NCBI RefSeq assembly: GCF_056746865.1
Contig: NZ_CM163382.1
DNA length: 64,000 bases
Strand: one strand, 5' to 3'
The notes beneath the pieces are model-generated. The model did not search any database, was not told the DNA's origin, and worked only from the letters and a program-made list of their open reading frames with translations. Positions 26,869-42,565 of the stretch are shown piece after piece (the stretch's first letter is position 1; each line of letters opens with the position of its first letter). Made by a program: the position numbers and the translations under genes.

Positions 26869-27093
26869 TCAGTGTTTTATTACCTTAATCTTTTTACGGC
26901 ATTCTTCAGCTCTTGCGCATGCTATTTTTTCACCTGTTTCATAACATTGCTGGCAGCCTAATCCAAATTTCATCGCCATATCATAACCTTCCCGAAAACC
27001 TCGGAACCACGCGTTACGAAGGTATTCATCATATTCCCCGCAGTCAATAATAACCATTTTATTTTCATGGGATTTTCCGGTATTCTCACTCAT
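26869..27093 (-). CDS. hypothetical small Cys-containing protein (74 aa)
   Basis: ATG at 27093 with GAGG RBS; five Cys; no family recognised. Confidence 0.3.
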   Translation of the reverse strand: MSENTGKSHENKMVIIDCGEYDEYLRNAWFRGFREGYDMAMKFGLGCQQCYETGEKIACARAEECRKKIKVIKH

Positions 27094-27907
27094 TTTCGAT
27101 ACCTCAATGCTTACAACAGAAAAGTATACTTTTACGAAGTTCGCCTTTGCAGGACTATATAAAGTTATCACTGGATGCAAGAGCCGGAAATCCTGTATAT
27201 CAGGATCAACTTTGTAATTCAATAACATATTATCCAGTGAAAAAGTAAGTATATTTAAGCTGGGGAAGGAGAAGGGGGACTTGATTTGATATTTTCATCA
27301 ATAATATTATTTTTCCTCCTCCATTATTCATTCAGACCTGGTTCCGGGCGTAATTCCGATTTCTCTGTTGAAGCGATGCATTTATATTTAAATATTCACC
27401 TGTCATTGAATTTTATTTGAAATAGGAGAAAATCTCCTCCTGTACTACAGATAACCCGGAATGTTCCTCGAAAGAAAATTCTGGCGCAGAATTCACGCCC
27501 GGTTCTGTTCAACATCATGCAGGATAACGATACCGAAACGTTAAACTCTGGCAATTCTCGTGTTATACACAGGCAGGAGTGATTACTACGGTAAGAATTG
27601 CTGAAAAGGGGAGAACACTGAAGGCCTTATTCGCGAAGAATAAAGGAGACATTTCATGTAAATTATTATCAGAGATAACCTTCTCCAGGCGCTTTTGTTC
27701 GCTTCCTGAATTGCTACCTGATACATATTTACGGGATGCCAGCCTGGTGACTATAACTCCGAAAAGACCGATTATTGTATTGCGTGCATCCGGCATGTTT
27801 ACAATGTACGCTGGTATCTAACGGAGTCTGACACAGATGCACGCAGGTGTATATTTTAACGTAATTATCCGGAAAGAACAGTATATTTTAATGCGGGAGT
27901 TGCATGA

Positions 27908-28800
<893 letters not shown>

Positions 28801-29334
28801 ATTGAGCACTGCAGTGTTCAGAGCACAAAGAAGAAAAAAGATGTGTGCGAATGCCTGTAATGTGTTAAAAGAATGTTCCGCGTTTCCGGTACGCTTTTCG
28901 TAACTAACAATGCAGGGTGACGTAACGCTGGTTGTGCCGGAAACGCGTCCCTCCCCCTATCTTTCCTGTTTGGATTTGCCCCTATATTTCTGGATTATCC
29001 GACAAAACCGGCGTGAAGTATTACTCTCGTCGCCCAGCACCATAAGGATAACGCCCATAAAATCATGAAACTTTTCTTCCAGATTGGATACAATCAGGCC
29101 GAAACGGTGATGAATATTATCCAAATCTGATGGTTCGTAGCGTTTTCAGCCCCCAGATTCTGAGTTGCCTGTAGGGATGATTTCAATTCCCGATTTGTCT
29201 ATCGCATAGAGAAAAAGAATTTCATTTCTGTTCACCAGAACCCATGTAACCCACTCCAATTCGTTATTTATCTCACTGATTGCCCTTCATTTATCTCATT
29301 GATGCACCGAAAGGTAAAACTGCCATCCGGTGCA

Positions 29335-30264
29335 TCACGCTCGATGCATCAAATCCTGATAAATCCCCGTCAGTATTCCTTGTAAGCTAAATTCTCTTTT
29401 TATCCACTGAGTGACTTGACCGCTTGCCGAATGCCTGGTTGCCAACAGCATTCGTGAATCCTGACGTGGGTTGCGGATCTGCCGTGTCACCAGCAATGAC
29501 TTTTCCATCGCTTCACGCACCATATAGTCTGGCAGAAAACCGATTCCCTCCCCCAGGATCTGGCACTGAAGCTTAGTATTAAAGTCGGGAACCAGAATCG
29601 ACTCTTGCCCGTGTAACAGCCAGCCGACTTTTTTGTTTATAGTGTTTGCAGTGTCTTCCACCATGATGTTCGGGTACAGACGTAACTGACTCTCAGAAAT
29701 GGGCTCAGGAATAAACGCCAGCGGATGATCCGGAGAAATCGCGAACAACCAACGAATCATGCCGATTTCAATGTAATCAATTCCACCACCGTCCAGTAAC
29801 GTATCGGGCGCGCCAATGGCGATATCAGCCTGGTTATTAATGAGTGAATCCCAGACGCCATTATACACCTCTGTAGTAATAGCTATCTGGCAGGTTGGAA
29901 AGTGTTCCCTGAGCACTTGCAGAAGCCGAGCTGTATGCTGAGGGGTATACAACAGTTGATTAATACAAATGCGCACCCGGGATTTAATTCCCTGAGCGAT
30001 GGCATCAACTCTACGTATGATGGAGTGGTAATCGTTGAGCAGGTCAGTTGCTTTGCAAAAAAGGTAGTGCCCGGGCTCGGTCAGCTCAATGCTACGGGTA
30101 GTTCGGGTAAAAAGCACCACGTCAAGCCCCATTTCCATACGCTTGATAGTGTAACTAATTGCCGATGTGGTTAAGCCCAGTTCCTTCGCCGCCTTGCTGA
30201 AACTTCTATAGCGGGCAGCCATAGTAAATGCCAGTAAGTTTTCTTCCGTAAATATTGAATTCAT
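29335..30264 (-). CDS. LysR-family transcriptional regulator (AllS/YahB-like)
   Basis: LysR HTH (FTMAARYRSFSKAAKELGLTTSAISYTIKRME) and substrate-binding domain; divergent from the yah-like operon. Confidence 0.75.
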   Translation of the reverse strand: MNSIFTEENLLAFTMAARYRSFSKAAKELGLTTSAISYTIKRMEMGLDVVLFTRTTRSIELTEPGHYLFCKATDLLNDYHSIIRRVDAIAQGIKSRVRICINQLLYTPQHTARLLQVLREHFPTCQIAITTEVYNGVWDSLINNQADIAIGAPDTLLDGGGIDYIEIGMIRWLFAISPDHPLAFIPEPISESQLRLYPNIMVEDTANTINKKVGWLLHGQESILVPDFNTKLQCQILGEGIGFLPDYMVREAMEKSLLVTRQIRNPRQDSRMLLATRHSASGQVTQWIKREFSLQGILTGIYQDLMHRA

Positions 30265-30651
30265 CTTTCTTTCCTCTGGCGACAATACACATACACAACA
30301 TGATGATTGTTGAATGTATTTGTAATTCTTATAACCGACAATCAGTTTTGAAAAAATTAACACCGTATTTACATTTAATTTGAAGGAAATCACACATCTG
30401 AATTTTAATTACAGGCAGCTATCCGTGCTGCAGACCACCTTTATTTATATGACTGCGGATTAATGGCTAAAATATCCCCAGCTATAATAGAAATATTGCA
30501 CTATATCACACTCTCTTATTATTGTTAATTTTGTTTCAATAATTCATGGTCTAATGATGAGTAAATTTTAAATGGATGGTGCTCTATGCATTCTGTTGCT
30601 ATTCTTGGCTTGTTATATTTGTAAAATCTTAAAAAGAGCAGGAGATCGATT

Positions 30652-31257
30652 ATGTCCAATAAAGAACTCATTACAGAATTTCTGCTGGCGGCAGAACAAG
30701 GTAATTCCGATGGATTAAAATCATGCCTTGATAAAAAGGTTGATATTAATGCGACTAACCGCGAGGGGCGTACTGCAATTATTATTGCCAGTCTGAATAA
30801 ACATTATGACTGCGTTTCTTTATTGATTTCCGCAGGTGCTGATATTAATAAACAAGATCAAACTTGTTTTAATCCCTTCCTGATTGGCTGCCTGAATAAT
30901 GATTTAACACTGTTGCGTACGGTATTACCGGCTAACCCCGACCTTAATTGCCTAACCCGTTTTGGCGGTGTTGGTATTACACCTGCCTGCGAAAAAGGCC
31001 ATGTCGAGATTGTACGTGAATTGCTGATGCGTACTGATATCAATGTCAACCATACTAATTTTGTTGGCTGGACGCCGCTCCTAGAGGCCATCGTGCTGAA
31101 TGACGGCGGTGAAAAGCAGCAGGAGATCGTCAAACTGTTGCTTGAGCATGGCGCAAACCCGCACATGACGGATAAATACGGTAAAACCCCGCTGGAGCTG
31201 GCGCGAGAAAAAGGCTACCACAAAATTGCCGAGTTGCTGATTTCGGCTGGAGCCTGA
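30652..31257 (+). CDS. ankyrin-repeat protein (YahD-like)
   Basis: 201 aa with ankyrin repeats (GRTAIIIASLNKHYDCVSLLISAGADIN; GWTPLLEAI; GKTPLELAREKGYHKIAELLISAGA). Confidence 0.8.
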   Translation: MSNKELITEFLLAAEQGNSDGLKSCLDKKVDINATNREGRTAIIIASLNKHYDCVSLLISAGADINKQDQTCFNPFLIGCLNNDLTLLRTVLPANPDLNCLTRFGGVGITPACEKGHVEIVRELLMRTDINVNHTNFVGWTPLLEAIVLNDGGEKQQEIVKLLLEHGANPHMTDKYGKTPLELAREKGYHKIAELLISAGA

Positions 31258-31342
31258 CAACAGGAGCACGATTATCGCTATATTATCACGGCAATCTTTT
31301 CGGGCACTAACCGCAGACTGCGCGTTTCTCACTTTTCGGGGA

Positions 31343-32191
31343 ATGGGCCAGGTTGAACAGGTTTTTTCCCATGCGGTAAATCTGTTAATACCTGAACAGC
31401 AGCGACTGCTGACGTTACTGAGTGAGGATTGTGATAACGCACCTAACAGTTGTCGTTTAGCACTGACACATTATGAAGACCTTTTTCACCCCGGTGAACA
31501 GGTCAATTTTAGCGGGTCTGGAATAACTGTTGGAAATGATAAATGGATAGAAATAACCGGTTGTCAGATGTGGCGAATACCACGGTGGACATCTGATTCA
31601 GCAAGCCTTGCCAAAGTCGGCTGGCAGCATTGGGAAGAGTTTATCCGCCAACAACTAAGAAGCAACGACACATTATTTCTGTACCAGGGTGACAATCCAT
31701 TTTATCAGGAAATTTCTCGCCAATTACTCAACCGCCGAAAAAATTTGCTGAAGGCGTTGTGTACAGGAGAAAACATCACTGCGGCAGTCAACCAGTTAAT
31801 TGGTCTTGGAATAGGGCTGACGCCATCATCGGATGATTATTTAGTAGGTTTAAGCACTATTTTATTTATTCAAGGACATCCACTAAGGAAGTATAGATAC
31901 GATTTCTTAGCAGCATTACAACTTGCAGGAAATAACATAACGCTTCTCAGCAAAATAACGTTAGAGGAAGCATTTAATCAGCGTTATCGGGAAAGAGTCG
32001 GACGGCTACTGAACCAATTTATTACTGAGCCACAACCCATTTCTACGCAATATGTTACTGACATAAAAAATATAGGCTCAAGTTCTGGATGCGACATGCT
32101 GTATGGCATGGCGGATGCCTGCGCCCTGAGCCACAGGTCCGGAGGTAATTATGTCAATCAGGATAGTTGTAAAAAAAAACACGTATTTTGA
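31343..32191 (+). CDS. DUF2877-like protein (YahE/YlbF-like)
   Basis: 282 aa; size and position match the yahE/ylbF partner of FdrA-like genes; called by synteny and recollection. Confidence 0.5.
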   Translation: MGQVEQVFSHAVNLLIPEQQRLLTLLSEDCDNAPNSCRLALTHYEDLFHPGEQVNFSGSGITVGNDKWIEITGCQMWRIPRWTSDSASLAKVGWQHWEEFIRQQLRSNDTLFLYQGDNPFYQEISRQLLNRRKNLLKALCTGENITAAVNQLIGLGIGLTPSSDDYLVGLSTILFIQGHPLRKYRYDFLAALQLAGNNITLLSKITLEEAFNQRYRERVGRLLNQFITEPQPISTQYVTDIKNIGSSSGCDMLYGMADACALSHRSGGNYVNQDSCKKKHVF

Positions 32192-33698
32192 TTCTGTTTC
32201 ACTGATGTCTATCTCCACGCGCGCAAATAAGCTTGATGGAGTTGAGCAGGCATTTGTTGCTATGGCGACAGAGATGAATAAGGGGGTGCTGAAGAATCTC
32301 GGTCTGCTGACCCCTGAGCTGGAAGAGGCGAAAAGTGGCGATCTGATGATTGTCATTAAAGGTACCAGCGAGGAGGCGAACGAGCGGACGCTAATAGCGA
32401 TTGATGAGCTGTTTGCGCATAAAGAACAGGGAGGCCAGCACGAAGCACGCTATGCCACGATTGCCAGTGCGAAGAAGCATGCTCCAGAGAGTAATCTGGC
32501 GGTGATCTCTGTCAATGGCCTGTTTGCTGCTCGTGAAGCTCGTCAGGCACTACAAAATAACCTCAATGTTATGCTGTTTTCTGACAACGTCTCTCTTGAG
32601 GACGAGCTGGAACTCAAGCATCTGGCACATGAAAAAGGGTTGTTGATGATGGGGCCTGATTGTGGAACCGCCATCATTAACGGCGCAGCGTTGTGTTTTG
32701 GCAATGCAGTGCGTCGCGGCAACATCGGAATCATTGGTGCCTCCGGTACGGGTAGCCAGGAGCTGAGCGTACGCATTCACGAATTTGGCGGCGGGATTTC
32801 CCAGCTGATTGGGACAGGTGGACGCGATATGAGTGAAAAAATTGGCGGCCTGATGATGCTTGACGCGATTAGCATGCTGGAGGCCGATCCACAAACTGAG
32901 ATCATTACGCTTATATCCAAACCTCCTGCACCAGCGGTAGCCCGTAAGGTGCTGGAACGTGCGCGCACCTGTCACAAGCCTGTGGTGGTGTGTTTCCTCG
33001 GACGTGAGTCCACCCCTGCGGATGAAGAAGGCCTACAGTTTGCCCGCGGTACTAAAGAGGCTGCCTTGAAAGCGGTACTGTTGACTGGTGTGAAAAAAGA
33101 GAGTCTGGATTTGCATCCGCTCAACTGGCAGCTGATTGAAGAGGTTCGCTCCCGTCTGACTCCACAACAAAAGTATATCCGTGGCCTGTTCTGTGGTGGC
33201 ACGTTATGCGATGAAGCGATGTTTACTGCCATGGAAAAACTCTCGGATGTGTATAGCAATATTCACCCGAATCCGGCGTTCCGCCTTACAGATCTCAACC
33301 GTAGCGTGGCGCATACCTTCCTCGATTTCGGCGATGATTATTTTACCAACGGCAAACCACATCCGATGATCGATCCCACCAATCGCATTACCCGGCTCTT
33401 GCAGGAAGCACAGGATCCTGAAGTTGGCGTGATCGTGATGGACTTCATTCTTGGATTTGGATCACATGAAGATCCGGTTGGAGTGATGCTGGATACAATT
33501 GTTGAAGCCAAAGAAATTGCTGCCGCAGACGGTCGCCCGCTTGAGATCCTCGGCTATGTGCTGGGAACCGACCTTGATACACCGTCGCTGAAAAAACAGT
33601 GTCAGATGTTGACCGATGCCGGGGTTATTTGGGCAAGCAGTAGCACCAACACCGGATTACTGGCACGTGAATTTATATTTAAAGGGGAGGAAGGCTGA
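32151..33698 (+). CDS. FdrA/YahF-like CoA-ligase-fold protein
   Basis: 515 aa, MSIRIVVKKNTYFDSVSLMSIS... typical of FdrA/YahF; RBS GGAGG before ATG. Confidence 0.75.
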   Translation: MSIRIVVKKNTYFDSVSLMSISTRANKLDGVEQAFVAMATEMNKGVLKNLGLLTPELEEAKSGDLMIVIKGTSEEANERTLIAIDELFAHKEQGGQHEARYATIASAKKHAPESNLAVISVNGLFAAREARQALQNNLNVMLFSDNVSLEDELELKHLAHEKGLLMMGPDCGTAIINGAALCFGNAVRRGNIGIIGASGTGSQELSVRIHEFGGGISQLIGTGGRDMSEKIGGLMMLDAISMLEADPQTEIITLISKPPAPAVARKVLERARTCHKPVVVCFLGRESTPADEEGLQFARGTKEAALKAVLLTGVKKESLDLHPLNWQLIEEVRSRLTPQQKYIRGLFCGGTLCDEAMFTAMEKLSDVYSNIHPNPAFRLTDLNRSVAHTFLDFGDDYFTNGKPHPMIDPTNRITRLLQEAQDPEVGVIVMDFILGFGSHEDPVGVMLDTIVEAKEIAAADGRPLEILGYVLGTDLDTPSLKKQCQMLTDAGVIWASSSTNTGLLAREFIFKGEEG

Positions 33699-35116
33699 TG
33701 AGCCAGACACTGTTTAATCAGCCGCTGAACGTTATTAATGTCGGTATCGAAATGTTCAGCGATGACATGAAAAAGCAGAATGTACCGGTAACCCAACTTG
33801 ACTGGACACCGCCAGGCCAAGGAAACATACAAGTGGTAACGGCACTGGACGACATTGCCGCTTCACCACTGGCAGACAAAATTGCAGCTGCTAATCAGCT
33901 GGCGCTGGAACGCATTATCCAGTCGCATCCTGTGCTAATTGGCTATGATCAGGCGATCAACGTCGTGCCGGGTATGACCCGTAACACTATCCTTCACGCC
34001 GGGCCGCCAATCCACTGGGAAAAAATGTGCGGCGCAATGAAGGGCGCAGTAACCGGGGCTCTGGTATTTGAAGGACTGGCGAAAGATCTGGATGATGCCG
34101 CCGAACTAGCTGCTTCAGGTGAAATCATCTTCTCTCCGTGCCACGAACATGACTGTGTCGGCTCAATGGCGGGTGTCACGTCTGCATCGATGTTTATGCA
34201 CATCGTCGAGAACAAAACCTATGGAAACCGCGCATATACCAATATGAGCGAGCAGATGGCAAAGATCCTGCGTATGGGCGCTAACGACCAGAGCGTTATA
34301 GAGCGTCTTAACTGGATGCGAGATGTACTGGGACCTATGTTGCGCGATGCTATGAAGCTGGCGGGCGAAATCGATCTGCACTTGATGTTAGCGCAGGCGC
34401 TGCATATGGGCGATGAGTGCCATAACCGCAACAACGCCGGGACGGCGCTGCTGATTCAGACGCTGACGCCGTGGATTATTCAGACTGGCTACCCTGTTGA
34501 GCAGCAGCGTGAGGTGTTCGAGTTTGTCCTCAGTAGTGATTACTTCTCAGGACCAACATGGATGGCAATGTGTAAAGCCGCAATGGACGCTGCGCACGGC
34601 ATTGAATACAGCACCGTGGTGACAACGATGGCACGCAATGGTGTTGAGTTCGGTCTTCGTATTAGCGGTTTGCCGGGCAAGTGGTTTACCGGTCCGGCGC
34701 AGCAGGTGATTGGGCCGATGTTTGCGGGCTATAAGCTAGAGGATTCCGGACGTGATATCGGTGATAGTGCAATTACCGAAACCTACGGCGTTGGCGGTTT
34801 CGCTATGGCGACGGCACCAGCTATTGTGTCACTGGTGGGCGGAACAGTTGAGGAAGCTATTGATTTCTCACGTAAAATGAGAGAAATCACTCTCGGAGAA
34901 AACCCCAACGTCACCATTCCCCTGCTTGGTTTTATGGGCGTACCGACCGCTATCGATATTACGCGTGTAGGCAGTACAGGCATTCTGCCGGTAATTAACA
35001 CAGCCATTGCGCACAAAGACGCAGGGATCGGCATGATCGGCGCAGGAATTGTTCACCCGCCGTTCACTTGTTTTGAAAAGGCGATCCTCAACTGGCGTGA
35101 CCACTACTGCCAATAA
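33698..35116 (+). CDS. DUF1116-like protein (YahG/YlbE-like)
   Basis: 472 aa; start overlaps FdrA-like stop; size and synteny match yahG. Confidence 0.6.
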   Translation: MSQTLFNQPLNVINVGIEMFSDDMKKQNVPVTQLDWTPPGQGNIQVVTALDDIAASPLADKIAAANQLALERIIQSHPVLIGYDQAINVVPGMTRNTILHAGPPIHWEKMCGAMKGAVTGALVFEGLAKDLDDAAELAASGEIIFSPCHEHDCVGSMAGVTSASMFMHIVENKTYGNRAYTNMSEQMAKILRMGANDQSVIERLNWMRDVLGPMLRDAMKLAGEIDLHLMLAQALHMGDECHNRNNAGTALLIQTLTPWIIQTGYPVEQQREVFEFVLSSDYFSGPTWMAMCKAAMDAAHGIEYSTVVTTMARNGVEFGLRISGLPGKWFTGPAQQVIGPMFAGYKLEDSGRDIGDSAITETYGVGGFAMATAPAIVSLVGGTVEEAIDFSRKMREITLGENPNVTIPLLGFMGVPTAIDITRVGSTGILPVINTAIAHKDAGIGMIGAGIVHPPFTCFEKAILNWRDHYCQ

Positions 35117-35228
35117 CAATAACCGGGGCTAACGCAGTTAGCCCCACAGTAGCGGAAAACGTTGTTTACCTTCAGGGCTGGGCGATCTCCATGATCGCAA
35201 ACGATGCTTAACCTGTTAAGGAGATTCC

Positions 35229-36779
35229 ATGAACAGCATAAAACTAGAATGGAAACGTGGTGACTGGGCGGCTTACTTTGGACTGATGACCAACAATCTG
35301 ACTAACCTGCTGACAATGATGGGTCTGCTAATTTTTGTCGTCGGAATCCCTACTGAAATTGTCTATGGACGCATTGCGCCTGCCTTTGGTCTTGCAGTGC
35401 TGGCGGCCAGTGTCTGCTACTCCTGGTTTGGTCTACAGATGGTGAAGAAAACCGGTCGTAGCGATGTAACGGCGCTGCCGTCTGGACCGAGCGCACCCTC
35501 AATCTTTACCGTGACATTCCTGGTGCTGATGCCGGTTTATCAGCAAACCAAAGATGCCAACTTTGCTATTCAGATAGGATTGGTGTGGTGCTTTGTCGAA
35601 GCGTTGATCCTGGTCGGTGGCTCCTTCCTGGGTGAGACTATCCGCAAGATGATCCCGCGTACAGTGCTGCTTTCTTGTCTGTCCGGACTGGGGTTATTAC
35701 TGCTGGCAATGAACCCGATGCTGCAAGCGTTCGAAGCGCCGACAGTTTCTTTCATCGTCCTGTTATTGATCTTCATTAACTGGTTCGGTAAGAAGCCGAT
35801 TTTTCCCCATATTCCTACCGGTTTGCTGTTGCTGATTGCTGGTACGTCCCTAGCGTGGATATCCGGTTTACAAAGCCCGGAAGACATTAAAGCGTCGATG
35901 TCTTCCTTCGGCTTCAACCCGCCGGAAATTCATGTAAGGAGCTTCCTGCAAGGTTTGCCGCACGCTCTGCCATATCTGGCTTCTGCAGTTCCTTTGGGCC
36001 TGGCTAACTACATTTTTGACCTCGAGAACATTGAAAGTGCGCACGCGGCTGGTGATGAATACAACACCCGTAAGGTCATGATGGCGAACGGCTTTGCCTC
36101 CATGCTCGGTTGCATGCTGGGTAATCCGTTCCCGGTAACCGTATATGTTGGGCATGCAGGCTGGAAAGCTATGGGCGCTAGTATCTGCTATACCCTCGCA
36201 TCAGGCATCACTATGTTTCTGGTGCCATTGTTTGGGTTGGGCGCGTTTATGCTCGCCATTATTCCCATGACTGCTATAGTGCCAATTCTGGTTTTTATCG
36301 GTGTGGTAACCGCCAATCAGGTGGTGCGAGAAACTCCTAAAGTCGAGGTTCCCGTCATTTTCATCTGTCTGTTCCCATGGGTCGCCAACTGGGCATTGAC
36401 CATCGTTAACAGCGTGATGGGCGCAGCCGGAACATCCGCTGAGAAACTTGGTAGCGACCTGTTGCACAGCAAAGGCGTCTATTACGATGGACTGATGCAT
36501 CTGGGAAGCGGTGCACCGCTGGCCAGCATGCTGTGGGGATGCATTGCTATCTTTGCCATTATGAATAAGCCGCTGCGCGGGGCGATAGCTGCATCCTTTG
36601 GAGCACTGTTATCGCTGTTTGGCGTGATTCACTCCCCAGCGGTTGGCTTTGCGGAAGGCGGCTCGATTGTGTTTGTTGTGGCCTACCTGATGATGCTTGC
36701 TATGTTTGCCCTCAAGCATGTTATTGATAGCCGTGAAACAGTGGCTGCGTCTGAGCAGGAAGAGACTAAAACGACCTGA
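35229..36779 (+). CDS. putative permease (possibly nucleobase/AzgA-like; family uncertain)
   Basis: 516-aa polytopic membrane protein inside the yah-like operon. Confidence 0.5.
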   Translation: MNSIKLEWKRGDWAAYFGLMTNNLTNLLTMMGLLIFVVGIPTEIVYGRIAPAFGLAVLAASVCYSWFGLQMVKKTGRSDVTALPSGPSAPSIFTVTFLVLMPVYQQTKDANFAIQIGLVWCFVEALILVGGSFLGETIRKMIPRTVLLSCLSGLGLLLLAMNPMLQAFEAPTVSFIVLLLIFINWFGKKPIFPHIPTGLLLLIAGTSLAWISGLQSPEDIKASMSSFGFNPPEIHVRSFLQGLPHALPYLASAVPLGLANYIFDLENIESAHAAGDEYNTRKVMMANGFASMLGCMLGNPFPVTVYVGHAGWKAMGASICYTLASGITMFLVPLFGLGAFMLAIIPMTAIVPILVFIGVVTANQVVRETPKVEVPVIFICLFPWVANWALTIVNSVMGAAGTSAEKLGSDLLHSKGVYYDGLMHLGSGAPLASMLWGCIAIFAIMNKPLRGAIAASFGALLSLFGVIHSPAVGFAEGGSIVFVVAYLMMLAMFALKHVIDSRETVAASEQEETKTT

Positions 36780-36805
36780 ATAGCCTGCAAACGGAAGATA
36801 ATTCT

Positions 36806-37768
36806 ATGAAAGAACTTGTGGTCGTTGCCATTGGTGGCAACAGCATTATCAAAGATAACGCCAGCCAGTCGATTGAGCATCAGGCGGAGGCGGTGAAGGC
36901 CGTCGCCGATACGGTTCTGGAAATGCTGGCTTCCGATTACGACATTGTGCTGACCCACGGCAACGGGCCGCAGGTCGGTCTGGATTTACGCCGCGCGGAG
37001 ATAGCCCACGAGCGCGAAGGGCTACCCTTAACGCCGCTGGCGAACTGTGTGGCGGATACGCAAGGCGGCATTGGCTATCTGATCCAGCAGGCGCTGAACA
37101 ACCGGCTGGCGCCTCTCGGCGAGAAAAAAGCCGTCACCGTGGTGACTCAGGTGGAAGTGGATAAAAACGATCCGGGGTTTGTCCATCCCACCAAGCCCAT
37201 CGGTGCATTCTTTAGTGAAAACCAGCGTGATGAACTACAAAAGGCAAACCCTGACTGGCGTTTTGTTGAAGATGCCGGACGGGGCTATCGCCGCGTGGTC
37301 GCCTCGCCGGAACCGAAACGTATTGTCGAAGCACCTGCCATTAAGACTCTGATCCAGCAAGGCTTTGTGGTGATTGGCGCGGGCGGCGGTGGCATTCCGG
37401 TGGTGCGTACTGACGCAGGGGATTACCAAAGCGTGGACGCGGTTATCGACAAAGATCTCTCTAGCGCGCTACTGGCTCGCGAAATTCACGCCGACATTCT
37501 GGTGATCACCACCGGCGTGGAAAAAGTGAGTATTCATTTTGGGAAACCCAACCAGCATGCACTGGATACAGTGGATGTCCTAACGATGGCCCGTTACATG
37601 CAGGAGGGTCACTTCCCGCCTGGGAGTATGTTACCGAAGATTCTTGCCAGTCTGGAGTTCCTGGAACGTGGAGGTAAAAGAGTGATTATCACCACGCCTG
37701 AATGCCTGTCCGCGGCACTGCGTGGCGAAACAGGCACCCATATTATCCACTCCCAAGAGGAGACGTAA
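36806..37768 (+). CDS. carbamate kinase (YahI/ArcC-like)
   Basis: MKELVVVAIGGNSI...LTHGNGPQVG... amino-acid-kinase family carbamate kinase motifs. Confidence 0.85.
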   Translation: MKELVVVAIGGNSIIKDNASQSIEHQAEAVKAVADTVLEMLASDYDIVLTHGNGPQVGLDLRRAEIAHEREGLPLTPLANCVADTQGGIGYLIQQALNNRLAPLGEKKAVTVVTQVEVDKNDPGFVHPTKPIGAFFSENQRDELQKANPDWRFVEDAGRGYRRVVASPEPKRIVEAPAIKTLIQQGFVVIGAGGGGIPVVRTDAGDYQSVDAVIDKDLSSALLAREIHADILVITTGVEKVSIHFGKPNQHALDTVDVLTMARYMQEGHFPPGSMLPKILASLEFLERGGKRVIITTPECLSAALRGETGTHIIHSQEET

Positions 37769-38866
37769 ATTAAGGAAAGCGACCGCCGCCGTGAATTTTT
37801 AATGTTCATTGCAGATTATCGTGGGCTGGAAATGATAACGGTTGGGGAGTTATTGTTTAGTTGCTAAAACAGAACGATAACCAACCCCAACCGTTCTCAA
37901 TTTCGAATACTATCTTTTCCATTTATCTCTGGATAGGCTTTGACGTCGTCCCTACTGAGTAAAATCCCCCTCATCATCCACCTAAAACCGATTGAAAACG
38001 GTCATTACTCTTGTGGCAAACAGGCTAAAGCCGTTCACGATGCTTCACTTCGCACCTTATCGTAATGAACAATACTGGTATTTCCAGTTCAGTTACGCCT
38101 ACCCGTCTACCGCATTCTTTGCCCTAACTGCGGCATAGTTCGGGATTATATCAGCTGGCTAAAGCCTTATGCTCATCAGACCACATGACTCATTGAGCAT
38201 GTTGAGGCGTTACTCAAAATCTTGCCGATTAAACATATTTCGTAATTTCTTACCCTGCACTAACATATCATCAATACTATCGACAAACGTCAGTTGCAAA
38301 TAGAGGTCACAGGGTCTGATTGATGTACTGTCAAGGCCGGGTCATGAAAGAGTTTGCCCTGTTCAAAGCTCATCGTTACGCACCGTCGTAGCCGATGCGG
38401 ATACTCATCAATCCTCTGGATAGGTGAGGTGCGTAGTAGAGAAGCTCGGTCGTTTTTCGTTAATCTGAATCAGTACTGTCAACATATTCAAGTCGTTAAT
38501 ATGGATATGAATACCTCCTTTGACCTAGAGGTACAGATGCACTACCCCCCAAGCTGTCAACGACGGATGAAAAGTGGCTCTTCCGCAACCTGGATGGAGA
38601 TTTTCATGCCAGTGGACTCATGACCCTCTGCCTGAGTAGTTCAAATCCGGCTCGACCATACATCTGGCCTTTCAGCATTTTTAGCCAATTTACATGACTT
38701 TCGACCACCCCCCATTATTCCAGCGACTGCTGATTGCCTCACATATAGCCGCAGCATCAGCTACCATCCTTGCAGCCACGCGCCGAAGTTACCACTTTCT
38801 CGTTGCTCTTTTAACCACTCCCTCCATGGGTCCAGAAGTCCTCGCTCTGGAGGCCGGGTTGACATT

Positions 38867-39730
38867 TCAGGGAATGTTCCTGAACACACCCAGAGACTGA
38901 CTGTCACACGTGATAAGCCTGTAATACGGGATATTTCCCCTGAACCCACATCCCTTGTTATGTAGTGCCATAACCTCTGTCCAACGCTGATGCCGTTTTT
39001 GGCGGGTTTGCTGTTTAAGGCGTTCCGGACGACGGAGCGATGCTACAGGCACAGACAGTACTGGCTTAGGTGATTTCTTTGGTGACAACCCACTGGCAAC
39101 AAGACGTATCAGAGGCATCTGTCTGTACATCATTCGTTCAGGCGCATCGCCAATATTTTTTAGCAGGTGCCATCGATCAGCTATCTGTCTGGCCTGAGGT
39201 GCACCTTCACGTGCTGCTGTCGCATAGACTCCGCCACGGTCACGTGAGACAACCTGTATTTCCGGATATTTTCTGAACCAGGTCGCCAGCGTACTCTGAT
39301 CGCAACCGGGAAGCAGGACGAGGGGACGGTGAGTATCAAGATTGACAATTAACGTGCCGTAATGGTGGCCCCGATGCCACGCCCACTCATCAATACCGAC
39401 ATGAGGCGCGCCCGACTGTTTCGTCTCCGGGGTATTAATAACCCTGCGAAGAAGAGTATCAGCACTGCAACGGAGCCCCACTGCCGTTGCTGCCTGTTTC
39501 CCGGCCTCACCTCCGGCTATTAATCCCAGTTGATGTTGTAAATTTTGTAACACCTGTGAAGAATGCTGGGAGTGAACCGGCGAAGGGGGCAAGCGACCCG
39601 GCAAAAATTTTACGTGAACAAGCCGGGTTACGGCAGTACCAGTGGCGGACGGAAAATACAAGCCATAGCGTCTGCCCTGAGCAGGGTAGATGCTGTATCC
39701 GGCGCCGACGATAACTATGAACAGAGTCAC
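38867..39730 (-). pseudogene. ISL3-family-like transposase fragment
   Basis: ...VGIDEWAWHRGHHYGTLIVNLDTHRPLVLLPGCDQSTLATWF...ADRWHLLKN... resembles a DDE_Tnp_ISL3 core; gene incomplete and abutted by IS1. Confidence 0.45.
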
Positions 39731-39907
39731 TACGCTTAAAGCATTCAGGACTTGTGCTGTTTTGCGTTTTCCGTGGAGATGGAGGGTTATACCGTCAGAG
39801 CTAATAATTTGTCGACTGCATCTCCATCCGCAAGGTAACTGTAGAAGTGTCTGGTGATGCTGCCAACTTACTGATTTAGTGTATGATGGTGTTTTTGAGG
39901 TGCTCCA

Positions 39908-40183
39908 GTGGCTTCTGTTTCTATCAGCTGTCCCTCCTGTTCAGCTACTGACGGGGTGGTGCGTAACGGCAAAAGCACCGCCGGACATCAGCGCTATCTC
40001 TGCTCTCACTGCCGTAAAACATGGCAACTGCAGTTCACTTACACCGCTTCTCAACCCGGTACGCACCAGAAAATCATTGATATGGCCATGAATGGCGTTG
40101 GATGCCGGGCAACAGCCCGCATTATGGGCGTTGGCCTCAACACGATTTTACGTCACTTAAAAAACTCAGGCCGCAGTCGGTAA
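39908..40183 (+). CDS. insA: IS1 InsA
   Basis: [43 protein letters not shown]... Confidence 0.9.
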
Positions 40184-40605
40184 CCTCGCGCATACAGCCG
40201 GGCAGTGACGTCATCGTCTGCGCGGAAATGGACGAACAGTGGGGCTATGTCGGGGCTAAATCGCGCCAGCGCTGGCTGTTTTACGCGTATGACAGGCTCC
40301 GGAAGACGGTTGTTGCGCACGTATTCGGTGAACGCACTATGGCGACGCTGGGGCGTCTTATGAGCCTGCTGTCACCCTTTGACGTGGTGATATGGATGAC
40401 GGATGGCTGGCCGCTGTATGAATCCCGCCTAAAGGGAAAGCTGCACGTAATCAGCAAGCGATATACGCAGCGAATTGAGCGGCATAACCTGAATCTGAGG
40501 CAGCACCTGGCACGGCTGGGACGGAAGTCGCTGTCGTTTTCAAAATCGGTGGAGCTGCATGACAAAGTCATCAGGCATTATCTGAACATAAAACACTATC
40601 AATAA
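40102..40605 (+). CDS. insB: IS1 InsB frame (expressed as InsAB by frameshift)
   Basis: ...[44 protein letters not shown]... Confidence 0.85.
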
Positions 40606-40620
40606 GTTGGAGTCATTACC

Positions 40621-40770
40621 GTGTTCCCGACAGACGACTCGGTGAAAAAAGTGGTGTGGCTGGCAATCCAGTCTGCGTCCCAGAAATGGACGATGCCGTT
40701 GAAGGACTGGCGAATGGCAATGAGCCGCTTTATTATCGAGTTCGGTGACCGCCTGGACGGTCACTTCTGA
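40621..40770 (+). pseudogene. IS256-family (mutator-type) transposase, C-terminal fragment
   Basis: ...KKVVWLAIQSASQKWTMPLKDWRMAMSRFIIEFGDRLDGHF stop; starts at the IS1 boundary. Confidence 0.5.
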
Positions 40771-41291
40771 GAAAAGGCATTTACACAGAATCCTAAACAG
40801 GCTCATTCAGACAGCTTTTTATTTCACTATGGCTATCCCAGAACAATCAGTACAAATAATAAAAGACATATCACAGCAACACTCCACACTGACAGCGCAA
40901 AAATAAATGCCGCCTTTGTTATCTTCATATACAAGCAACCTGTCCTGATAATCACCAGCTCATGTTTTATTCTTAACCATTCGTCACAAATACAACAAAA
41001 AATAACAGCAGCAGCACCGATATCACAATATAAGATACATTATTCAACACCTGAATCCCCCGCCGCTTCTCTCCCCTTTATAAAACGCCCCTTCCGGAAT
41101 CCAGACCGCTGCAGTGCACGACGAAGATGACCGTATACCGTCTTGTCATTCTGCCCCGTCTCTTCTGTAATCTCCGCAATACTTAAACCTCTGTAATACC
41201 GGTTCAGTACCGCTCTGCGCTCTTCCAGCGTCAACACACCTCCGGCCGCTCTCAGATTCAGCATCGACTTATTCAGAATATGGATTTGCCC

Positions 41292-42197
41292 CTATATTTC
41301 CAGACACCTGTTATCACTTAACCCATTACTGGCCCGCTGCCGTAGATATTCCCGTGGCGAGCGATAACCCAGTGCACTATGCGGATGCCATTCGTTATAA
41401 TGCTCGAACGCCTCTGCAAGGTTCTTTGCTGCCGTTAACCCGTCTGGTTTAGGCATGATACTGATGTAGTCACGCTTTATCGTTTTCACGAAGCTCTCTG
41501 CTATGCCGTTACTCTCCGGACTCCGCACCGCCGTGTTCTTCGGTTCAAGCCCCAACATCCGGGCAAACTGCCGTGTTTCATTAGCCCGGTAGCATGAACC
41601 ATTATCCGTCAGCCACTCTACTGGAGACGCCGGAAGCTCGTTGCCGAAGCGGCGTTCCACCGCTCCCAGCATTACGTCCTGTACTGTTTCACTGTCGAAG
41701 CCGCCCGTAGTGACTGCCCAGTGCAGTGCCTCACGGTCACAGCAGTCCAGCGCGAACGTGACTCGCAGTTTTTCTCCGTTATCACAGCGGAACTCGAACC
41801 CGTCAGAGCACCATCGTTGATTGCTTTCTTTCACGGCCACTTTGCCAGTATGTGCCCGTTTCGATGGCGGTACAGCGGTTTTTCGCTCAAGCAACAGCGC
41901 ATTCTGGCGCATGATCCGGTAAACACGTTTGGCATTGATCGCAGGCATACCATCAAGTTCGGCCTGTCTGCGAAGCAGCGCCCATACCCGACGATAACCA
42001 TACGTGGGCAGCTCTCCGATAACATGGTGTATACGGAGAAGCACATCCGTATCATCTGAGTGACGGCTGCGGCGACCATCTTTCCAGTCATCGGTTCGTC
42101 TGAGAATGACGTGCAACTGCGCACGCGACACCCGGAGACAACGGCTGACTAAGCTTACTCCCCATCCCCGGGCAATAAGGGCGCGTGCGCTATCCAC
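41292..42197 (-). CDS. insD: IS2 transposase InsD (orfB)
   Basis: ...[34 protein letters not shown]...[22 protein letters not shown]... Confidence 0.9.
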
Positions 42198-42565
42198 TTT
42201 TTTGCACGCCCGTATTCAACGGCTTCTTTAAGGAGTTCATTTTCCATCGTTTTTTTGCCGAGCAGGCGCTGGAGTTCTTTAATCTGCTTCATGGCAGCAG
42301 CAAGTTCAGAGGCAGGAACGACCTGCTCTCCTGCGGCCACAGCAGTAAGACTTCCCTCCTGGTATTGCTTGCGCCAGAGAAATAACTGGCTGGCTGCCAC
42401 ACCGTGTTGCCGGGCAACAAGGGAGACCGTCATTCCCGGTTCAAAACTCTGCTGAACAATAGCGATCTTTTCCTGTGTAGTACGCCGTCTGCGTTTCTCC
42501 GGTCCTAAGACATCAATCATCTGCTCTCCAATGACTAGTCTAAAAACTAGTATTAAGACTATCAC
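42155..42565 (-). CDS. insC: IS2 InsC (orfA)
   Basis: [56 protein letters not shown]... Confidence 0.9.

Follow-up and report, generated by a model that had tools for sequence, protein, structure and literature searches.

An IS1-bounded deletion in a chromosomal genomic island of Escherichia coli and a related composite transposon on ColV-type plasmids

Simple insertion of IS1 leaves a direct duplication of 9 bp, occasionally 8 bp, at both ends of the element, and insertion sequences that lack such target duplications have been put down to adjacent deletions or to recombination between IS copies (PMC11708052). In the 64,000-nucleotide stretch of DNA analyzed here (the window; contig NZ_CM163382.1), a first-pass annotation noted an IS1 copy with unequal 9-bp flanks, bordered by an ISL3-like fragment on one side and an IS256-family fragment on the other. 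The locus thus raises the question of which event placed this IS1 between two unrelated elements, how much DNA was lost in the process, and what became of the resulting junction.

IS1 and its two unrelated flanks

The IS1 is intact, IS1A-like and 768 bp long, and occupies positions 39853-40620 on the plus strand. A degenerate search for IS1 terminal repeats returned two sites in 64 kb, against none expected by chance: the left repeat (IRL, GGTGATGCTGCCAACTTACTGAT, 39853-39875) agrees with the terminal-repeat pattern at every position and the right one (IRR, 40598-40620, minus strand, finishing ...ATCAATAAGTTGGAGTCATTACC at 40620) has two mismatches to it, so that this is the sole IS1 copy in the window. 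Within it, insA spans 39908-40183 and the insB' frame continues to 40605 by way of an A6C -1 frameshift motif at 40159-40165 (TTAAAAAAC as read at 40157-40165), which together with the length and the repeats identifies a member of the IS1 family. Pfam domains Zn_ribbon_InsA (1.3e-21), HTH_Tnp_IS1 (4.7e-31) and DDE_Tnp_IS1 (4.5e-77) are all present, PGAP labels the element ‘IS1-like element IS1A family transposase, programmed frameshift’, and it looks fully functional. It is 99.5% identical to IS1A of K-12 (locus L011), with four substitutions (positions 444, 579, 687, and 721; haplotype G444/A579/T687/A721) and no indels, and positions 1-443 are those of IS1A. Since this alignment is free of gaps, the ends of the element cannot be re-aligned.

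The nine bases to the left of IS1 (GAAGTGTCT, 39844-39852) are the last remaining bases of an ISL3-family element, and the nine to its right (GTGTTCCCG, 40621-40629) are internal sequence of IS1414. Identity is limited to 3 of 9 positions, as expected by chance, and no match between the flanks was found in the 8-bp registers either. The inequality reported in the first-pass annotation is therefore borne out, and the 8-9 bp imperfect duplication that it had named as grounds for withdrawing its interpretation does not appear on re-alignment of the IS1 ends.

On the left, a degenerate and truncated ISEc38-like element of the ISL3 family lies on the minus strand at 38554-39852, as judged from Pfam and alignments. 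A minus-strand ORF at 38867-39730 matches DDE_Tnp_ISL3 (E 3.6e-17), and thousands of ISL3 elements of the ISEc38 type in E. coli match the nucleotide sequence at 92-94% identity (93-94% for ISEc38-annotated copies). Compared with ISEc38, it carries frameshifts and an internal deletion of about 347 bp, and PGAP labels it ‘ISL3 family transposase, frameshifted’. A terminal inverted repeat is left at one end only (38554-38593); inverted repeats pairing both ISL3 ends were searched for in the window and none was found, because the other end has been deleted. In complete ISEc38-type copies (loci L006 and L007), GAAGTGTCT is followed by 120 bp running from TAAGAGAGTG to GTTGACAG, and in intact copies, which include an intact-ended orthologue in locus L012, the ISL3 tail (TAAGAGAGTGCATTG...) comes directly after GAAGTGTCT. 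These terminal 120 bp, comprising the other inverted repeat and the first 8 codons with the transposase start codon, are what the window element lacks, and the cut falls exactly at the IS1 terminus. The ISL3 ‘fragment’ of the first-pass annotation is in fact a nearly whole, degenerate element from which only 120 bp are missing.

The ISEc38-type elements have a further peculiarity. Their outermost 22 nt (TGTCAACGACGGATGAAAAGTG or TGTCACGAACGGTGCAATAGTG) are the same as the outermost 22 nt of the IRL/IRR of IS100, an IS21-family element, as compared at window positions 38555-38576, the IS100 termini of loci L002 and L015 and the ISEc38 ends of L006 and L007; the ISL3-type repeat GGCTCTTCCGCAACC starts just inside this terminus. 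For this reason ISEc38-type elements have the appearance of an ISL3 element enclosed by a pair of IS100-type termini, and it is a possibility, judging from these termini, that the IS100 transposase mobilizes them.

On the right, positions 40621-40804 (plus strand) correspond to the final 184 bp of the IS256-family element IS1414 and match IS1414-annotated copies at 184 of 184 positions. They comprise the C-terminal 49 codons (40621-40770) and the right terminal repeat, which ends ...AACAGGCTC at 40804; at 49 aa the remnant falls short of what a Pfam match requires, and its family was assigned by nucleotide identity. In complete IS1414, with the copy at L001 33493-34807 (1,315 bp, with an 8-bp target duplication) as the full-length reference, ...AAAAGCGTAAA precedes GTGTTCCCG. 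The first ~1,131 bp are missing from the window, and alignment to intact elements, which the first-pass annotation had proposed as a check, places this cut, like that in ISL3, exactly at the IS1 end. The originally annotated span, 39731-40770, took in about 120 bp of the ISL3 element and the 150-bp remnant of the IS1414 ORF, but the IS1414 remnant runs to 40804. Island sequence collinear with strain PK8566 (from L012 25759) begins at 40805, the right edge of the deletion described below, and positions 40805-41280 (minus strand) hold the upstream region and the 3' part of a sigma-factor-like HTH gene.

The ~120 bp upstream of this gene are a hot spot for IS256-family events, as compared among L012 25640-25758, L010 43591-43820, L013 16270-17545 and window 40621-40804. 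PK8566 has a 61-bp inverted remnant of an IS1414 end and a palindrome there; in DG342-2, a different element of the IS256 family, which shares 75% identity with IS1414, lies 46 bp upstream; the IS1414 of TUM9803 is without its last 39 bp and is joined at the palindrome; and the window has the true IS1414 right end, at a fourth position. In ECCNB12-2 (L014 14270-24860), the sigma-like HTH gene and a YadA-like adhesin gene form a module between two IS1414 copies, sited in a prophage tail-fibre region beside the trp operon, and this unit is a candidate IS1414 composite transposon moving the adhesin module.

The ancestral island and the extent of the deletion

The state before the rearrangement was sought with a chimeric query that joined window 37800-39852 to the 120-bp ISL3 tail. 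Twenty-one complete E. coli chromosomes, PK8566 and TUM9803 among them, cover this query whole and in one piece, at 98.6-99.3% identity; in these the orthologous ISL3 end is intact, beside the same carbamate kinase gene, and there is no IS1. The gene order in PK8566 (L012) is the ISL3 element, an MFS transporter, a LacI-family regulator, a nucleoside hydrolase, MgtC/SapB, TRAP and FhuD remnants, a PIG-L deacetylase, a glycosyltransferase, an acetyltransferase, YaiO, and then the same sigma-like HTH and YadA-like genes as in the window, with ~9.6 kb of genes between the intact ISL3 end and the sigma-like HTH gene. Pairwise alignment matches window 26883-39852 to L012 3084-16052 (99.78% identity) and window 40805-41280 to L012 25759-26234 (99.79%), so that L012 16053-25758 (9,706 bp) is missing from the window. 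TUM9803 (L013) has the same gene order and, between yaiO and the sigma-like gene, an IS1414 in the orientation of the window stump. With its end 53 bp further upstream and its last 39 bp gone, that copy is not the direct precursor. No full IS1414 was found at the exact window site; five genomes have an IS1414 near the sigma-like gene, at another site or in another context, and the context of the ECCNB12-2 copy differs from that of the window.

In the window, 9,706 bp of island and ~1,131 bp of IS1414 have therefore been replaced by IS1, a deletion of ~10.8 kb bounded by this element. Its flanks lie apart in the relatives (the 21 chromosomes that include PK8566 and TUM9803) and its breakpoints coincide exactly with the IS termini. 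Since a complete element cannot descend from a truncated one, it is the arrangement of the window that is derived. The proposal that the junction arose by IS1-mediated deletion or by recombination between two IS1 copies, rather than by simple insertion, is supported by these relatives, in which 9.7 kb or more separates the breakpoints (PK8566 and TUM9803), and a missing target duplication did here flag a rearrangement. The genes lost from this island lineage are those for sugar and nucleoside uptake and a small glycosyltransferase/YaiO cluster.

The derived arrangement is not confined to the window. The truncated ISL3 element, IS1, the IS1414 stump and the sigma-like gene are found together in ~20 complete E. 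coli chromosomes, mostly of poultry source, at 99.3-100% identity. IS1414 is cut at exactly the same position in 19 records, to which TUM1886 and TUM9803 add two, and the exact three-part junction is thus common to at least 21 E. coli chromosomes. Such sharing indicates an inherited, real structure and not an assembly error.

Two genomes, TUM9803 (NZ_CP135671.1) and CFSAN061770 (NZ_CP023142.1), hold both versions of the island, the copy with the intact ISL3 element and the 9.7 kb lying far from the IS1-junction copy on the chromosome; the island, or part of it, has therefore been duplicated or acquired twice.

Several further features lie in the same island. A complete IS2 (1,331 bp, minus strand) at 41281-42611 interrupts the sigma-factor-like HTH gene; flanked by the 5-bp duplication GAATA (41276-41280 and 42612-42616), it is, unlike IS1, a simple insertion, and it is absent from AR_0085, PK8566 and TUM9803. 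An IS421 (IS4 family) at 42849-44219 sits where AR_0085 and TUM9803 also have it, but in the opposite orientation, with only the ~39-bp terminal repeats aligning in both senses, which reflects either in-place inversion or independent insertion at the same site. At least six tandem copies of a 99-bp unit lie at 44711-45483 within the YadA-like adhesin gene; their number varies by strain, the gene measuring 1,167-1,674 bp in PK8566, DE17, TUM9803 and AR_0085. Finally, window 10895-12388 and 45476-46983 share three collinear direct-repeat blocks, 88-92% identical and 34.6 kb apart, a likeness that points to a second, diverged copy, elsewhere in the island, of the sequence downstream of the YadA-like gene.

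A composite transposon on ColV-type plasmids

Some 80-100 ColV/ColBM-type IncF plasmids share sequence with the window as far as the right end of IS1 and no further. These plasmids carry tsh, an eit-like ABC transporter and RepFII, and their hosts are avian and extraintestinal E. coli. In pMS1050-1, two inverted IS1 copies with their IRL ends inward bracket the counterpart of window 27732-39852 (plus strand), a 12.1-kb cargo segment (12,121 bp) that comprises an IS3 remnant, a LysR regulator, an ankyrin protein, DUF2877, fdrA, DUF1116, a hypothetical/permease gene, the carbamate kinase gene and the truncated ISL3 element. The halves of a serine acetyltransferase gene lie outside the two IS1 copies and bear a perfect 9-bp direct repeat (CATGCAGGA). 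The unit on pMS1050-1, with two IS1 copies and an outer duplication, is a bona fide IS1 composite transposon; the window has a single IS1. The right arm of the composite is the counterpart of the IS1 at 39853-40620 and is interrupted by IS100 in the plasmids examined; the composite measures 13.7 kb, or 15.6 kb with IS100 in that arm.

The left boundary is equally sharp. With window 27200-28260 as a probe, 106 of 106 plasmid matches start exactly at 27732, and 112 chromosomes are contiguous across 27731/27732, among them islands without any cargo, such as that of DG342-2. The window likewise has no IS1 at 27731/27732.

Compared with both intact-ISL3 chromosomes, the window and the plasmids have derived alleles in common at 38008, 39356, 39367, 39413 and 39729, which argues that the truncated ISL3-IS1 junction arose once. 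The left boundary just described and TUM1886 both bear on the direction of its later movement. The TUM1886 chromosome (L015) has the window-type junction with the IS1414 stump, and in L015 16053-18779 its IS1 is interrupted by IS100 at the exact ColV-plasmid site, with IS1 positions 404-409 (CTAAAT) duplicated; the strain also carries a ColV-type plasmid with the same composite. At 27748 and 27851, both no more than 120 bp from the plasmid boundary, the chromosome has the plasmid-type base, and it runs on to the left with no IS1. Taking these alleles from a plasmid would call for a crossover confined to 16 bp, so shared ancestry is the simpler reading, and under shared ancestry the transposon of the plasmids would stem from a chromosome that already had the junction. 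The SNPs and the IS100 insertion in common thus suggest that the plasmid copy came from such a chromosome. An analysis of SNP switch points in the cargo for a plasmid/chromosome hybrid found no clean switch, and the cargo SNPs give no clean rooted tree. Leaving artefacts aside, we consider it quite probable that the junction was chromosomal first. We would also put at slightly better than even the fuller history, in which the scar IS1 became the right arm of an apparently unnamed composite that took the 12.1-kb catabolic cluster of the island from chromosome to ColV/ColBM-type plasmids, a transfer that could be followed base by base by way of a TUM1886-like intermediate.

A literature search on the ColV carbamate-kinase segment and ISEc38 found nothing specific, so the composite may be undescribed. 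It documents how a segment of a chromosomal island would have come to ColV virulence plasmids on an IS1 composite, and could serve as a lineage marker for plasmids and islands of avian-pathogenic E. coli.

Origin of the scar and comparison with known systems

We searched for the products and precursors that the deletion could have left behind. The reciprocal and precursor queries joined the 5' part of IS1414, ending in GTGTTCCCG, to the IS1 IRL, and the IS1 IRR to GAAGTGTCT and the ISL3 tail; between them, these two chimeras would detect either outcome of IS1-IS1 recombination, deletion or inversion. No reciprocal junction was found in 5,426 complete E. coli genomes, which gave split, non-adjacent matches only, as expected if the excised product was lost. 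The other IS1 copies with reciprocal flanks for which the first-pass annotation had suggested looking are likewise absent from the window and from these genomes, a result that fits a lost excised product and does not tell the sub-mechanisms apart. No simple-insertion precursor, that is, an IS1 with its own 9-bp duplication at either breakpoint, was found in the 5,426 genomes or in PLSDB, and PLSDB had no intact-ended copy of the ISL3 element beside the carbamate kinase gene, the best match stopping at the IS1 boundary. With both precursor and reciprocal junctions missing, the intermediates are not observable. A 6-bp motif common to both breakpoint regions, AAGTGT, is probably coincidental (~3-4% by a rough, post hoc count), and no transposition model needs it.

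We interpret the IS1 as the scar of an IS1-promoted deletion in a chromosomal genomic island, not of a simple insertion, and favor an adjacent deletion, to which we assign a probability of roughly 0.5. The ancestral state, seen in PK8566 and TUM9803, had the carbamate kinase gene, a complete dead ISEc38-like element, ~9.6 kb of genes and the sigma-like HTH gene. IS1414 would then have entered directly before the sigma-like gene, on its upstream side and at the equivalent of window 40804/40805, and IS1 would have landed in one of two sites, IS1414 or the ISL3 end. By transposing once, intramolecularly and replicatively, into the other of the two sites, this IS1 would have excised the interval between them (9,706 bp of island and ~1,131 bp of IS1414) as a circle, subsequently lost, so that a single IS1 stayed behind. 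Its flanks would derive from two different targets, which accounts for the lack of a target duplication. The two last steps are visible as structures on the plasmids, and their direction is presumed: a second, inverted IS1 would have inserted at 27731/27732 in a descendant chromosome, and the IS1-cargo-IS1 unit would have transposed into the serine acetyltransferase gene of a ColV-type IncF plasmid.

A tentative second explanation is that two direct IS1 copies, one at GAAGTGTCT in the ISL3 end and one at GTGTTCCCG in IS1414, each having made a 9-bp duplication, were recombined by RecA, with loss of ~10.8 kb and retention of one hybrid IS1. The end sequence would be the same as that of an adjacent deletion and as that observed; these strains have 28-39 IS1-containing places per chromosome, and recombination between IS copies is listed as a frequent cause of missing duplications (PMC11708052). 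The IS1 also equals IS1A over positions 1-443 and has its four differences within 444-768, as a chimera might. This clustering of all four SNPs in the right 325 bp (p ~0.03 if uniform, in a post hoc test) is weak, though, and gene conversion among IS1 copies could also yield it. Moreover, recombination presupposes that IS1 inserted twice, separately, in one orientation and no more than 11 kb apart, and neither single-insertion intermediate is found in the 5,426 complete genomes or PLSDB. By a modest margin, we favor the adjacent deletion because it needs one insertion and one event, as opposed to two insertions and one event.

The junction could, in an unlikely third scheme, have come to the chromosome from a plasmid. 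Two simple IS1 insertions in a PK8566-like island would have created the ISL3-IS1 junction as part of a composite, and the composite would have passed to a ColV plasmid without the ISL3 tail, which stayed in place; the right-arm IS1 of the plasmid would later have formed a cointegrate into chromosomal IS1414, or the plasmid would have recombined with an IS1 resident there, and recombination between plasmid and chromosomal cargo would finally have removed the plasmid backbone together with the 9.7 kb. Such a course would account for a chromosome without IS1 at 27731/27732, and the left junction is about four times commoner on plasmids than on chromosomes. IS1 is able to form cointegrates, and TUM1886 and strain 135 carry both a plasmid and a chromosomal copy, so that exchange is possible. 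Yet the plasmid IS1 would have had to strike at a distance of only ~11 kb from the chromosomal copy of the cargo that it carries, the crossover behind the plasmid-type alleles of TUM1886 (27748 and 27851) would have to lie within 16 bp given that plasmid homology starts at 27732, and the junction of IS1 with the ISL3 tail expected from the postulated first insertion was found nowhere in the 5,426 E. coli genomes.

The only point in favor of a simple IS1 insertion, with its 9-bp duplication decayed by point mutation or its ends mis-called, is the 3 of 9 chance matches between the flanks, and this reading is refuted by the ISL3 tail and the 5' continuation of IS1414 in other genomes, the flanks being two different insertion sequences that each continue there into their own missing part, and by IS1 ends that align base for base with K-12 IS1A; we give it next to no weight. 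A repeat-induced mis-join at an IS1 copy, of the kind at which short-read assemblies break, is just as improbable, the identical junction being present in at least 21 independently assembled complete chromosomes and its left half in ~100 complete plasmids.

Element, scar and plasmid unit each have known counterparts. The junction IS1 resembles IS1A of K-12 in its 768 bp, its 23-bp terminal repeats and its insA/insB' frames with the A6C site, and differs from it by four substitutions and by having no target duplication, owing to the later rearrangement. IS1 composites include Tn9, with direct IS1 copies, and Tn1681, with inverted ones. As in these, two IS1 copies bracket the cargo of the ColV composite with a 9-bp duplication outside; unlike them, it carries a metabolic cluster (fdrA, DUF1116, carbamate kinase) and a dead ISL3 element and no resistance or toxin gene, its right arm is interrupted by IS100 in the plasmids examined, and only one arm is present in the window.

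Adjacent deletions promoted by IS1 are classical, and Reif and Saedler reportedly described IS1-promoted deletions of the gal region in 1975. The window deletion shares with classical IS1 deletions and with the IS150 adjacent deletions of the Lenski long-term lines (PMC11708052) that the IS is kept, that the deletion extends exactly from its terminus, that there is no target duplication, and that an ancestor with the intervening DNA is available for comparison. It differs in being natural and fixed, in lying in a pathogenicity-island-like region and in having both endpoints inside other insertion sequences; there is also no time series with a precursor insertion. Deletions and plasmid reorganization by IS26 (PMC4471558) are similar in that replicative intramolecular transposition leaves a single IS with unmatched flanks, although IS26 belongs to the IS6 family and makes an 8-bp duplication. 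The class of deletion mechanism is ordinary, and what the present locus adds is its reconstructed history.
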